45,092 nucleotides of DNA from Promethearchaeota archaeon. GTDB lineage: Archaea; Asgardarchaeota; Lokiarchaeia; Sigyniarchaeales; SOKP01. The stretch covers positions 1-45,092 of the forward strand of contig SDNW01000004.1 of NCBI GenBank assembly GCA_004524725.1, in the 5' to 3' direction. The position numbers and the translations under genes are program-made. Positions 1-21,176 of the stretch are shown here, piece by piece (position 1 is the stretch's first letter; every line of letters starts with the position of its first letter). The notes under the pieces were generated by a model that was not told where the DNA came from, did not search any database, and was given only the letters and a program-made list of their open reading frames with translations.

Positions 1-2444
1 AATAGGCTATTTGTTTTAATAAAAATATATCCAAATAAGAATCCAAGTGCTCCAGCATAAATGACCTGAAAGACGGTAGATACCCAATATTGACCAAAGA
101 TTATATTAACCAGATGAAATAATCCAAATGATATTGAACTAATTATTAATACCGTTAATTTTGAATACTTCTTCGAATTCAAGGGAATGATAACCCCTCG
201 AAATGCCCATTCTTCCCATATCCCCGGTATCAACATCACAATGAAGAAAAACCATCCATATATAAAACCAAAGGATGTGCTCCGTGGAGGACCGAATATT
301 ATTGATGGATCGAGCACAAAATCGCCTAAAAGAATTGCAAATATCCATAAAGAGCCACAATAGATAGCAACACAAGCTAAAGCAAGAAGAATATTAATGA
401 GATATTTTGATCTCTTCATTTTTGGAGTGATCAGTTTGATGGATTTCAAGTATTTATTAAACTTTTCCTTGCCATTTGGAAGACGTAAACTTTTTGGTAC
501 AACTAAAAGCCATAGGAGCATCATGAAGCCAAAATTATAAAAGAAATTCACGAAAAGCACTCCTGTAAGCGGAAGTATTTCGTATAATGGAATTAATAGT
601 AATTCTGGAAATTGAGGTAAGTATAAAAATGCAAAATAGATTAGTAATACCACTAAGGTTCCTATTAATGGTTTTTCACGTAAAGCCTGACGCATGCTTA
701 TCATCTTTCGCTTTCCAAACTCCTTTGGGAACATCCGATTGACGCCGATTAATAATCCTATTAATATGAATAAACTTGTTATGGACAATATTAATACCAT
801 TGGAGCCAATCCAAAAAACGATAGTAGTATAGCACCCATTATCAAATAGAATATCAATATTAATCCTTCAGTTGTCACCATGATTATCCATTTAAGAGTT
901 TTTTTGTTTGGGTTTACCTCTTCCAACACATACTTATATTTCATCCTCCCAAAGAGCCGGATCTTTAAGGAAAAAATAGTTAACACGAAAACAAGGCTAA
1001 TAGGATACCACGCAATAAATAATAGCAAATAATCTATAAAGACTGGACTAGTTATGAAAAGTAGTACTGGCATGAAAAATGAAAGCGTTTGAATAGTCAA
1101 TAACAATGAAAGCTTCGCTTTTGCTTGATCTCGTGGATGAATAGGTAATCCTGCAAGAATTGAGGCTCCTCCATCTTCCATATTTAAAAATCCAGTAGTA
1201 ATAATTATCGATATCATTGGTTGGTAAAACATTAGAATACTCCAAAAAATCATAACATCTCCCTGATCAAAACCATCCGTCGCGGAACCAATGCTAAAAA
1301 CAAGGATTATTGAATAAACTAAAGGAAGAATTATCGGGAGGATTAAATACATCAATGTCTGCATGTCTCTTGTGGCTGCAGATAGATCTTTTTTCCGGTA
1401 TGCCTGAATCGGAGATCTAACTAAAATATCAACGTCAAGGACCTCTTTTCTTTCTTTTTCTGTTTTTAATTTTTTCTCGGCAACAGAACTTATCGTTACC
1501 ATTTTCATTGAACTTACTGCTTTATTATATAAGAAATATGCTAAAACTATTAATAACCCAGTGCCAAGGAGCCCAGATATCCACATATTGGGAGTGAATT
1601 GGCTAGGATCTATAAGTAACGTTAATAAACTGGCTGGAGCAAATGGGAATGGAATCAATGTAAGAATAAAATTAACAAAATCAGGAATATCCATAGCCGC
1701 GAGGGAAATGAAAATATCCTGGATCGCATTTATCGCCCATTGAAAAATTAAACTCGCAGACATAGCTGCTATGAAATAACTAAGCATAGTAATGATCCTT
1801 ATAACTGTTGCTTTTTTGGAGCTTACTTGATCACCCATAAAGATGCGACTCATCCTCTCAGCAATTAAAACTAATAAACTTACAACAAAAATAACGTTTA
1901 AAACCGAGATGAGAACACTGATAATAACTAATAATATATTTTGAGTGATAATTGCCATAATTATTGGGAAAGATACAATGATAATGATTAAAGCAGCATC
2001 TAAATTTCGAATTACCGTTACTAATCCTAATTTTTGCAGTCGCCTTTTTGCAATAGGTAATGTTTCATACCACTTAAAAGCTTCACCAGTCATCATTGCG
2101 CTAATGTTAAACATACCCAATAATAACAAATAAATAAATTGCGTAAGGAAAAAAATTCCAAAAAATAGACTTCCCCCAAAAAAAATAGTGTTTACTGGTA
2201 AAGTACCAAAACTTTCCAATACTTGAAAAAGTGTAAATATTGGCACAACAATGACAAAAATAATTAATATAGCATAAACTATTTTGAGAGCGAATACTTG
2301 ATGTTGGACGGATTTCTTATTCTTTTTATACTTCTCCATGAGTTTGGCTTGATTTGCACCAGTTGATTGAATTTGCGCCTCCATTACAATCTCCAGATTT
2401 GTATATTTTGCTAACTTATACAAATTCAACTTATTTTTTGACAT
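1..2444 (-). CDS. Multi-pass ABC transporter permease fused to C-terminal CPBP/Abi (CAAX protease type II) intramembrane metalloprotease domain; 3' end truncated by window edge
   Basis: Not in the ORF track because it runs off the edge. Manual translation from ATG 2444 (MSKNKLNLYKLAKYTNLEIV...) was spot-checked in the same frame at ~1390 (YRKKDLSAATRDMQ), ~960 and ~720. It reaches the CPBP motifs IWEEWAFRG (~195-221) and SFGLFHLVN (~105-131). Lies directly downstream of an ABC ATPase. Confidence 0.85.
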   Translation of the reverse strand, partial: MSKNKLNLYKLAKYTNLEIVMEAQIQSTGANQAKLMEKYKKNKKSVQHQVFALKIVYAILIIFVIVVPIFTLFQVLESFGTLPVNTIFFGGSLFFGIFFLTQFIYLLLLGMFNISAMMTGEAFKWYETLPIAKRRLQKLGLVTVIRNLDAALIIIIVSFPIIMAIITQNILLVIISVLISVLNVIFVVSLLVLIAERMSRIFMGDQVSSKKATVIRIITMLSYFIAAMSASLIFQWAINAIQDIFISLAAMDIPDFVNFILTLIPFPFAPASLLTLLIDPSQFTPNMWISGLLGTGLLIVLAYFLYNKAVSSMKMVTISSVAEKKLKTEKERKEVLDVDILVRSPIQAYRKKDLSAATRDMQTLMYLILPIILPLVYSIILVFSIGSATDGFDQGDVMIFWSILMFYQPMISIIITTGFLNMEDGGASILAGLPIHPRDQAKAKLSLLLTIQTLSFFMPVLLFITSPVFIDYLLLFIAWYPISLVFVLTIFSLKIRLFGRMKYKYVLEEVNPNKKTLKWIIMVTTEGLILIFYLIMGAILLSFFGLAPMVLILSITSLFILIGLLIGVNRMFPKEFGKRKMISMRQALREKPLIGTLVVLLIYFAFLYLPQFPELLLIPLYEILPLTGVLFVNFFYNFGFMMLLWLLVVPKSLRLPNGKEKFNKYLKSIKLITPKMKRSKYLINILLALACVAIYCGSLWIFAILLGDFVLDPSIIFGPPRSTSFGFIYGWFFFIVMLIPGIWEEWAFRGVIIPLNSKKYSKLTVLIISSISFGLFHLVNIIFGQYWVSTVFQVIYAGALGFLFGYIFIKTNSL

Positions 2445-18508: not shown

Positions 18509-20479
18509 ATGGTAGAAGCAAAGGTTGCTAAAGATATCGAGGAAATTCGAATTTTCGTTGCTGTCTGTCAATGAGGTATAAATATTGCGGAAATAATAGA
18601 TACAAAACAATTAGCAGAGTTCTCAAAATCATTACCTAACGTTGTTGAGGCTCTAGATTACATAAGTCTCTGTACTGAAGCAGGAGCAGAGTTTATTAAG
18701 GAAAAGATGATAGAAAACAATGCAAATCGATTGGTAGTCGCATCTTGTACTCCAATTACACATGAACCTGTCTTTAAAAGTGTTCTTGAGGGTATGGGGC
18801 TTGATCCATCGTTTTTAGAATTTGTCAATATTCGAGAACATTCTAGTTTAGTACACAGAAAAGATAAACCTGGGGCTCAAAGAACCGCTGAAGATGCGAT
18901 TAGATCGGGCGTTGCTCGTGCTGCAGTACTAGAAAAAATTATGGTAAAAGAAGTAGATATTACCAAAAAAACATTAGTTATTGGTGGTGGGGTGGCGGGA
19001 TTATCTGCAAGTATTGATTTAGCTGAGGAAGGATTTGAGGTATATCTTGTAGAAAAAAGTCCTACTATTGGTGGGAAAATGGCGATGCTTGACCGAACAT
19101 TCCCCACAGATGACTGTAGTATCTGAATTCTCGGTCCTGTGATGCTCGAGGCTGCAAGAACTCCAAGATTAAACATTTATACTTATAGTGACGTGGAGGA
19201 TGTTTCTGGATTTGTGGGAAATTTTAAGGTAAAGGTCCGTAAAAATGCTCGTTACGTTAATAATGATTGCAATGGATGCGGATCTTGCTTTGATGTATGT
19301 CCTGCATATGGGTATGATGAGTTTAATGAAGGAATGAATCCACGGAAGGCAATATATCTCTCTTTTGCCCAAGCAGTCCCTTCAATGGCTCAGATCGATA
19401 TGAATCGATGTATCAAGTGTGGATTATGCCAAAAAGTCTGTGAGGTTAATGCGATTGACTTTAACCAAGAAGAAGAAGTCATAGAATTAGAAGTTGGCTC
19501 AATTATCGTGGCTACTGGTTGGGATGAATATAAACCAGAAACCGGCTATCTGGGATATAACAAATATCAAAACGTTATAACTCAAATGAAACTCGAACGC
19601 ATACTAGCGCCAAATGGACCTACAATGGGTCATCTTGTGCGCCCATCAGATGGTAAAACGCCTAAAAAAATCTTATTTATTCAATGTGTGGGTTCAAGGG
19701 ACTTAAATAAGCAAACATATTGTAGTGCCGGTGTTTGTTGTATGATTTCTATAAAAAATACCAAACTCATTAAACAACATTATCCAGATGCGGATATCAC
19801 TGTAGCTTATATGGATATCAGAGCTGCGGGAAAAGATTATGAAGAGTATTTTACGGCTTCGAGAAAGGAGGGTATTAAATACGTACGGACTAATGTCTCA
19901 AAACTTTATGAAGCCCCCGAAACTGGTAATTTAAAAGTTATATTGCAAAATACTTTGAGTAGTACGGGTCTGAAAGAGTTTGAATACGACTTAGTAGTCT
20001 TATCGTGTGCGATGGTTCCTGCGATTGGAGTGGAAAAAATCGGAAAAATATTAAAACTTGAAAATAGCCGTGATGGGTTCTTTAAAGAATTCCATTCCCG
20101 ATTGAATCCTATCGATACTAAAATACCTGGAATTGTACTTGCTGGGGTAGCTCAAGGTCCAAAATCTATATCTGAATCAATATCACAAGGAAGAGCTGCG
20201 GCATCATCACTAGCAAGGCTCATGAGTAAAGACAAATACCGAATTCTGCTGATCCGTGCTACTGTCGATAAAGATAAATGTGCTAAATGTGGTTTATGTG
20301 AACTAAATTGTCCCTATGACGCAATAGCATTGAATCCTGACGGTGCTGAAGTAAATGAAATTTTATGTCGAGGTTGTGGGTCGTGTCTTGCAAATTGTCC
20401 ATCAGAAGCTATAACACTACGATATTATCGAGAACCACAATATGAAACACAAATTGATGCTATATTAGAGGAAATCTAA
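18509..20479 (+). CDS. hdrA: Heterodisulfide reductase subunit A, selenoprotein with two in-frame UGA (Sec22, Sec206); 656 aa
   Basis: Single frame from ATG 18509: RIFVAVCQ-UGA(18572)-GINI matches HdrA CxCGxNI, and FPTDDCSI-UGA(19124)-ILGP matches FPTxDCxxCILxP. Also VVASCTP, NIREH, IGGGVAG, ferredoxin motifs, QCVGSR, GVAQGPK. Confidence 0.93.
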
Positions 20480-20492: not shown

Positions 20493-20972
20493 ATGTCAAC
20501 TAAAAATGGTATAAAGGTTATAGCCTTTATGTGCTGGAAATGAGGTTATGGAGCGGGAGATATGGCAGGAACTATTCGCGCCCAATACCCTGCAACAATA
20601 AGACCAATTAGGATTAACTGCACTGGTCGAGTAACTCCGAGCTTAATGATGCGAGCAATTGGTAAAGGAGCTGATGGCGTAATCGTAGCGGGATGATATG
20701 AAGGAGAATGTGATTATGAAACCGGAAATTTAATCGCAGCTAAAAATGTGGAATACACAAAAGAGATTTTAAAAACAGCGGGTGTATCTCCCGAAAGAAT
20801 CCAGATGTTTCATTGTAGTGCCGCAGAAGGACAGAGATTTCAAGAAGAAGTTACTCGTATTTCACAAATAATTGAAAAATTAGGCAGCAACCCTATGAAA
20901 GAATCTATATCTTTAGAAAAACAAAAAAGTAAAACCCAAGAAAAGAACAAAAAAACTAAACCGAAAGAATGA
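20493..20972 (+). CDS. mvhD: Hydrogenase iron-sulfur subunit MvhD/VhuD, selenoprotein with two in-frame UGA (Sec17, Sec68); 159 aa
   Basis: MSTKNGIKVIAFMCWK-UGA(20541)-GYGAGDMAGTIRAQYP...RINCTGRV...KGADGVIVAG-UGA(20694)-YEGECDYETGN...PERIQMFHCSAAEG. Both UGAs sit at MvhD [2Fe-2S] Cys positions. Confidence 0.93.
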
Positions 20973-21027
20973 ATCTTATAAAAAAACTATAGTTATAAGA
21001 GGACACACCATAAAGCAATGGTTTCGG
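20961..21027 (+). ncRNA. Putative SECIS element (eukaryote-like AUGA..AA..GA type; cis-acting RNA structure)
   Basis: AUGAA (20969-73) / GGAC (21001-04) core; 8-bp stem UCUUAUAA (20974-81) : UUAUAAGA (20993-21000); loop starting AAAAA; lower stem CCGAAA (20961-66) : UUUCGG (21022-27). Confidence 0.78.
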
Positions 21028-21176
21028 AAAAAAATTTTAACTATTTTTTAATTTTAAATTAGATCTCCTATTAATACTACAATAAAAAGTCTGTAAATCT
21101 TTTTAAACTCGAGTATCTAGTTAAATCGTGATTTTTTAATTTTAAAATCAAAATAAAACATAAAAAGTGAAAAATT

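Follow-up and report, generated by a model that had tools for sequence, protein, structure and literature searches.

A UGA shared by the vhuD stop codon and the core of a predicted SECIS element in an Asgard archaeon: probably a neutral by-product of an element that abuts its coding region

Introduction

In a metagenome-assembled genome (MAG) of a Promethearchaeota archaeon (Lokiarchaeia, Sigyniarchaeales; GenBank assembly GCA_004524725.1, contig SDNW01000004.1), the gene vhuD ends in a UGA that is at the same time part of the core of a putative selenocysteine insertion sequence (SECIS). The locus raises the question of how a triplet can terminate translation in a transcript in which other UGAs are predicted to encode selenocysteine (Sec), and whether the sharing of one triplet between stop codon and recoding signal is a selected device or an accident of position. 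The stretch of DNA analyzed, hereafter the window, comprises 45,092 nucleotides (positions 1 to 45,092 of the forward strand), to which coordinates refer unless another contig is named.

The element is the published lokiSECIS, and both the overlap and the argument that a UGA may lie too close to the element to be recoded are already in print. The main text of Mariotti 2016 (PMC4989117) reports that many Loki selenoprotein genes end in UGA, describes the core UGA as the stop codon for VhuU.1, and states that proximity to the SECIS would preclude recoding, implying a minimal distance; the main text of Huang 2024 (PMC11227280) notes that stop and core "often" overlap. The function of lokiSECIS remains bioinformatic because, according to the available text of Peiter 2025, a lokiarchaeal SECIS was non-functional in Methanococcus maripaludis. 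In the same host a euryarchaeal SECIS placed directly after the coding region was still functional (Peiter 2022).

The hdrA-vhuD Locus

The two genes and their UGA codons, translated with TGA read as U, are as follows.

18509..20479, + strand: hdrA (heterodisulfide reductase subunit A), terminator UAA
18572-74 and 19124-26, + strand: in-frame UGA (predicted Sec) codons of hdrA, after the ATG
20493..20972, + strand: vhuD/mvhD (FlpD family), stop UGA at 20970-72 (codon 160)
20541-43 and 20694-96, + strand: predicted Sec codons of vhuD
20886..20969, + strand: Lys-rich, low-complexity C-terminal tail of VhuD (residues 132-159), beyond the FlpD/MvhD domain

HdrA contains Fer4, FAD and pyridine-nucleotide oxidoreductase domains (Pfam), and residues 9-131 of VhuD match the Pfam family FlpD (PF02662; E = 9.8e-43, 145.5 bits against a cut-off of 22.3). 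The genes are separated by 13 nt, with GGAGG preceding the vhuD start, and are probably co-transcribed as a bicistronic mRNA. The four UGAs upstream of the stop, which lie 275, 428, 1845, and 2397 nt 5' of the core, are presumably decoded as Sec; U17 and U68 of VhuD align with Cys residues of a Cys-containing paralogue in the same genome (42% identity, E = 2e-43). The main text of Mariotti 2016 gives the terminator of HdrA as always UAA or UAG and describes diverse stops for VhuD. The length and reading frame of the Lys-rich tail differ among orthologues.

The genome contains a full-length match to SepSecS (368.9 bits). No tRNA-Sec occurs among 18 Aragorn tRNA lines, and the two Rfam tRNA-Sec matches in the genome are below threshold (best 35.7 bits vs. 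a cut-off of 47), from which absence is not to be concluded because the MAG is only 70.7% complete. In a metatranscriptome run (X8), short contigs cover parts of hdrA and the start of vhuD, with none on 20762-21100; being contigs, these matches are silent on transcript ends and on the SECIS element. Over 19384-20067 the hdrA contigs of this sediment library are nearly identical to the window (1-6 differences per 151-241 bases), and carry-over of DNA is possible.

The closest public relatives of VhuD belong to MAGs labeled Promethearchaeota (Lokiarchaeota/Asgard). Other close homologues (74-87%) occur in MAGs labeled Hod-, Odin-, Thor-, or Hermodarchaeota, record labels that are at odds with sequence similarity. 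A 4221-base contig of a MAG labeled Kosmotogaceae bacterium (L157) is probably mis-binned, since it bears an Asgard-type vhuD (77% identical) with a lokiSECIS.

Structure of the Element

The element extends from the last codons of vhuD into the 3' flank, and its parts are listed below (all on the + strand).

20961..20966: lower stem (C helix), 5' strand CCGAAA; coding, CCG AAA = Pro-Lys
20969..20972: AUGA of the SECIS core quartet; UGA 20970-72 is the vhuD stop
20973..21001: upper stem and apical loop; nine stem positions, with eight Watson-Crick pairs and a non-Watson-Crick A20973/G21001
20974-81: UCUUAUAA, pairing with UUAUAAGA at 20993-21000
20982-92: apical loop AAAAACUAUAG, 11 nt, A-rich, last two nucleotides AG
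21002..21003: core GA, predicted to form tandem sheared pairs with the G and A of AUGA; followed by C
21007..21022: third arm (A)CCAU/AUGG(U) with loop AAAGCA; CCAU 21008-11 pairs with AUGG 21018-21
21022..21027: lower stem, 3' strand (U)UUCGG, partner of CCGAA(A) at 20961-66
21035-38, 21044-49, and 21052-55: T-runs 3' of the element, read from the sequence

Each feature of the published lokiSECIS is present: an AUGA immediately 5' of the main stem (20969-72), a 9-bp stem (here eight Watson-Crick pairs and the A/G at the base) with an 11-nt loop that starts with five adenines and has a final G after an A, a GA (AA being the published alternative) straight after the stem (21002-03), and a single copy behind the vhuD of an hdrA-vhuD tandem. 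The element also fits the type I model of Huang 2024, which the main text gives as a stem of 7-15 bp with at most two mismatches and a loop of 8-20 nt. The minimum free energy fold returned by RNAfold is the same three-way structure (-11.9 kcal/mol, z = -3.06), with no gap between the third arm and the lower-stem 3' strand; of 200 dinucleotide shuffles, 2 folded as well as the element. No Rfam family, the SECIS models included, matched the whole window at the gathering score, and at E values up to 10 the region 20850-21150 gave three chance matches on the minus strand and no SECIS family. A covariance model of the element has a single match on the window's contig, behind hdrA-vhuD, where the element is predicted to direct Sec insertion upstream. 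The T-runs at 21035..21055 could possibly represent an archaeal oligo-T transcript end.

Most of the original prediction, which was made from the letters of the window, agrees with these data. It had identified the hairpin as a SECIS, which the published features together with the conservation and covariation described below bear out, and had placed the in-frame stop of vhuD inside the AUGA at 20969-72 and the 5' strand of the lower stem in the Pro-Lys codons (CCG AAA, 20961-66), as found here. It had described a Lys-rich tail running up to the UGA, and residues 132-159 indeed lie beyond the domain at 9-131; an upper stem shorter than that of eukaryotic SECIS elements, which is supported; and a small extra hairpin creating a three-way junction, which is precisely the fold that RNAfold returns and whose arm is conserved. 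The stop was correctly counted as the fifth UGA, as two in-frame UGAs in hdrA and two in vhuD come before it.

Conservation and Covariation

The original prediction had proposed folding and covariation across Asgard vhuD 3' ends as a check. With this check run, the hairpin and the AUGA/GA core proved to be conserved and the stems to covary. The element occurs in all 30 orthologous loci of the same genus (79-87% protein identity, the window's own locus aside). It is likewise present behind vhuD at 79 of 80 loci in named Promethearchaeota MAGs, of which loci 29 duplicate the set of 30 and from which 76 distinct sequences were aligned. Among the 30 orthologues the U, G, and A of AUGA are invariant and its first A is kept in at least 90%, the core GA and the following C are invariant, and the upper stem shows compensatory changes at 6 of 9 pairs; 92.4% of cells are paired, against 33-49% when the partner strand is slid. 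Covariation in this set is uninformative for the lower stem and the third arm because both barely vary.

A wider alignment of 79 elements, fitted to the model and including paralogous elements, shows compensatory changes at all 19 pairs of the three helices (9/9 in the upper stem, 6/6 in the lower stem, 4/4 in the third arm), with 92.7% of cells paired against 39.7-50.7% when slid, values that such an alignment favors by construction. When the 76 distinct sequences were aligned by MAFFT without regard to structure (A4), 9 of 9 pairs of the upper stem covary and 90.2% of cells are paired against 32.1-47.7% when slid; the lower stem was left out of this scoring because a 1-nt difference in the spacer shifts half of the rows. 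The stem position beside the tandem G.A pairs (20973/21001 in the window, columns 38/68 of alignment A3) is non-standard in 47 of 79 elements, and what the published 9-bp stem counts as its "ninth base pair" is thus in most cases no Watson-Crick pair.

Ten lokiSECIS-like elements were found in the window's genome, hosted by four vhuD paralogues, vhuU, a PrxL gene, and three small ORFs with an in-frame TGA, while the tenth (site C3) has no clear upstream ORF. In other genera the model (R1), run with the stricter filters of Infernal, matched 2 of 24 genomes; a pattern scan of the vhuD 3' ends of 20 other-genus genomes gave a candidate core in 14, and this scarcity of model matches is a limit of the model, not of biology, because the pattern scan found cores. 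Two candidates were dropped for want of a convincing core (L044, and L104, the latter a weak one of the 14), and the scan of vhuD 3' ends found no core in L105, L107, L111, L114, L115, and L116. Eleven of the 13 other-genus elements kept fold as three-way junctions.

Some elements depart from the consensus in the core. Two vhuD 3' ends from named MAGs (L190 and L191) have GUGA in place of AUGA, and the element behind a Prx-like gene with a WUxxU motif (L038, G000:C96:14621-14701, + strand) has AGGA and retains the stem, the A-rich loop, the GA, the lower stem, and the third arm.

Candidate Selenoprotein Genes Upstream of Related Elements

Several elements follow small ORFs that could encode further selenoproteins. 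The first (L200, G000:C131:2033-2227, - strand) is a 64-aa ORF with one predicted hydrophobic helix, one in-frame TGA, and a C-terminal GGGUGC, with a lokiSECIS behind it. Pfam gave no match, and weak homologues (33-40% identity) retain one in-frame TGA in 13 of the 16 further matches in related genomes. Of 68 sampled same-genus elements, 17 are preceded by small ORFs in which a Gly-rich motif (GGGU, GGU, GDGU, or GEU) stands directly ahead of the Sec codon, itself 15-20 codons before the stop; the main texts on Asgard selenoproteins covered here name no family of this kind.

A second candidate (L201, G000:C16:4555-4779, + strand) is a 74-aa hydrophobic ORF with one in-frame TGA; no Pfam family matches it above the cut-off. 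The reading frame ends at a UAA within the upper stem of the SECIS, 7 nt beyond the core UGA, and the coding sequence therefore runs through the AUGA core. A third (L202, G000:C146:2108-2449, - strand) is an ORF of 113 aa with two in-frame TGAs side by side (GCUU) and no match in Pfam; a lokiSECIS lies behind it.

Position of the Stop Codon

The terminating triplet was located relative to the core UGA in both sets of vhuD loci, with the following results.

30 orthologues: core UGA, 11; UGA 4 nt upstream, 3; UAG, 0; UAA 6-19 nt upstream, 16; no element, 0
80 vhuD loci: core UGA, 13; UGA at -4, 6; UAG at -5, 32; UAA at -6 to -19, 28; no element, 1

In 79 of 80 loci the stop is thus either the core UGA or a triplet at most 19 nt upstream of it. 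Since the kin sampled are not independent, these counts are descriptive and no measure of selection. Of 68 other same-genus elements, 11 were assigned the core UGA as their stop, under a rule that takes the longest TAA/TAG-free frame to 33 nt before the core and counts a later in-frame TGA as the stop. An open frame of at least 40 codons reaches to within 33 nt of the core in 64 of these 68; in the remaining four (L039, L055, L070, and L088) fewer than 40 open codons reach that point and the assignment is unreliable. The upstream sequence of the other-genus loci is too short for reliable frames. As a general rule, then, the SECIS either adjoins the end of the coding region or overlaps it, so that the terminating triplet depends on the frame in which this end is reached, and the stop/core overlap is optional among relatives. 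An identical 18-nt sequence, AUUAAACCGAAGGAAUGA, is present in three loci that stop at the core UGA (L003, L005, and L006) and in five that stop at UAA (L009, L011, L016, L017, and L025), being entered in two frames after an A-rich tail of variable length.

These observations are best accommodated, with good confidence on our part, by a single Asgard-type SECIS that serves hdrA and vhuD, a core UGA that terminates owing to the geometry of the ribosome, and an overlap that is a neutral by-product. The folded element would let a Sec-specific elongation factor deliver Sec-tRNA to the four upstream UGAs. The vhuD frame crosses the indel-prone Lys-rich tail and meets the invariant AUGA in a register where its UGA is the first stop. 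A ribosome with UGA 20970-72 in its A site would already have unwound the lower stem and the core and would also cover the 5' strand of the upper stem, leaving no SECIS at that moment; the release factor would win at the core UGA because no folded element would then exist. Termination by unfolding of the SECIS is plausible on these geometric grounds. The overlap would be a labile consequence of an element that abuts the coding end, not a selected dual signal, and it looks like an evolutionary accident rather than a regulatory device.

The original prediction had gone further, presenting the triplet as designed to be both terminator and recoding signal and suggesting that terminating ribosomes transiently switch off Sec insertion upstream. 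Under that reading termination would melt the SECIS, throttle the decoding of upstream UGAs, and couple termination to recoding under selection. The position of the stop, within the core or at most 19 nt upstream of it in 79 of 80 loci, does mean that the element must be disturbed whenever vhuD translation terminates; in one group of vhuD paralogues (defined by C-terminal peptide) the core UGA is the stop in 9 of the 13 species sampled, and 3 of the first 8 elements scanned in the window's genome overlap in the same way. The core-UGA stop is nevertheless a minority state (11/30 and 13/80), it flips between relatives with the same 18-nt sequence, and the frame with the core UGA in it shows no enrichment (15 of 79 vhuD loci). 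The feedback, moreover, is not specific to the overlap, because UAA and UAG stops at most 19 nt upstream would cause the same disturbance, so that melting cannot account for the sharing of the triplet. Both the design and the feedback are thus left without support, and a selected dual signal is unlikely, although in some lineages the overlap may bring a weak benefit.

It is less probable still that Sec is inserted at the core UGA often enough to be of use. UGA presumably serves as a Sec codon in this organism and, as the original prediction had pointed out and the translation confirms, read-through would add only Sec-Ile-Leu before a UAA (C-terminus ...KTKPKE-U-I-L-stop), a short extension. 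With a ribosome on the core, however, the SECIS should be unable to fold, as judged from ribosome geometry, and a further SECIS-like match was not found downstream; the extension lacks conservation, with 67 of 80 loci stopping upstream or having no element, and the downstream frame differs even among core-UGA orthologues, one of which (L003) would continue through the stem. The least credible alternative is an mRNA 3'-end structure (terminator or stability element) that only resembles a SECIS, which the position at the operon 3' end, the adjoining T-runs, and the lack of an Rfam match would suit, but the invariant AUGA...GA, the A-rich loop, and the exact 9/11/9 spacing recur within the genome and genus behind unrelated selenoprotein genes (vhuD paralogues, vhuU, PrxL, and small ORFs with an in-frame TGA), the pattern is that of the published lokiSECIS, and the stems covary around a fixed core.

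The window's own case alters little, being one more example of a published arrangement. The set of loci has a wider use as a natural experiment, in which one and the same SECIS sequence is combined in close relatives with stops that are UAA, UAG, an upstream UGA, or the core UGA. The core-UGA stop would put at zero the upper bound of the UGA-SECIS distance at which termination still occurs; in small ORFs of the genus the Sec-UGA lies only about 51-76 nt from the core, and the two values together would bracket the minimal spacing of the system.

The Third Arm

The extra hairpin on the 3' strand is widespread. Across 81 elements from the window's own genome, its genus, and other genera, RNAfold with the upper stem alone constrained gave a lower stem enclosing a 3' hairpin in 68, against 26.7% of shuffled-flank controls (mean z = -2.0). 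The arm is 96.2% paired in the model-fitted alignment of 79 elements and 89.5% paired in the structure-blind alignment, where both partners vary at 2 of its 4 pairs. GC occurs in the loop of the arm in 59 of the 68 three-way elements (6.3 expected at random, maximum 15 in 2000 trials), and GCA or GCG in 47. The arm is separated from the lower stem by 0 nt in 34 of 68 and by at most 1 nt in 47, an adjacency that would fit a third arm stacked coaxially on the C helix. The 5' loop, which separates the lower stem from the G of AUGA, has 5-7 unpaired nt in 51 of 68 elements (5 in the window).

With this loop, the element does not conform to the standard k-turn, which has a bulge of about 3 nt before the G.A pairs. 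It resembles a k-junction, which the text of Li 2023 (PMC10573300) defines by tandem G.A pairs with a helix placed on the non-bulged strand, across from the loop: at the level of secondary structure the tandem G.A/A.G pairs are there, with a third helix opposite the loop on the non-bulged strand. As far as the texts of Wang 2014 (PMC4005666) and Li 2023 allow comparison, the two features in common are these tandem pairs and the extra helix on that strand, here placed between the A of GA and the lower stem; the 5' loop is longer here (5-7 nt vs. about 3), and the likeness is topological only.

The third arm may be the only part of this analysis that adds to the literature. The main texts of Mariotti 2016, Huang 2024, and a 2026 AEM review, the figures or supplements of which may show it, make no mention of the arm, nor, as far as SECIS-related wording goes, does Sun 2021, and a search of full-text literature for archaeal SECIS elements with a three-way junction and for lokiSECIS retrieved no description of it in the texts covered. 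We put forward, tentatively and as the less probable outcome, that the Asgard SECIS is a three-armed, k-junction-like RNA of which the third arm (3-7 bp, GC(A/G) loop) is an integral functional part. The arm may be a docking site, for instance for an archaeal SECIS-binding factor or for the Sec elongation factor. If so, one could understand why no activity has been demonstrated for the published core hairpin on its own, and the arm would supply a missing piece in the transition from archaeal to eukaryotic SECIS elements.

Comparison with Known Systems

In its core the window's element does not differ from the lokiSECIS of Mariotti 2016, which is the Asgard type I eSECIS-like element of Huang 2024, as both are described in the main texts, which leave unmentioned the combination of a lower stem with a conserved third arm and its GC-containing loop. 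According to the former, in HdrA-VhuD tandems one copy behind vhuD also serves hdrA; an hdrA that ends in UAA is likewise common to both.

The vhuD SECIS of Methanococcales and Methanopyrus, compared by its description in the main text of Mariotti 2016, has in common with the present element an AUGA opposed to GAC or AAC, an extra basal stem, and a position behind vhuD. Its main hairpin is of the euryarchaeal type with a GAA_A bulge, whereas that of the window is eukaryote-like.

With eukaryotic SECIS elements the window's element shares the AUGA/GA quartet (the kink-turn core), unpaired adenines in the apical loop, a position at the 3' end, a predicted effect on several remote UGAs, and a minimal spacing between UGA and SECIS. 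Eukaryotic SECIS elements are bound by SBP2; the archaeal SECIS literature, in the texts covered, reports no SBP2 in archaea. The Asgard element differs from its eukaryotic counterparts in having no match to the Rfam SECIS models, a shorter upper stem, an overlap with the coding sequence, and a third arm on the 3' strand.
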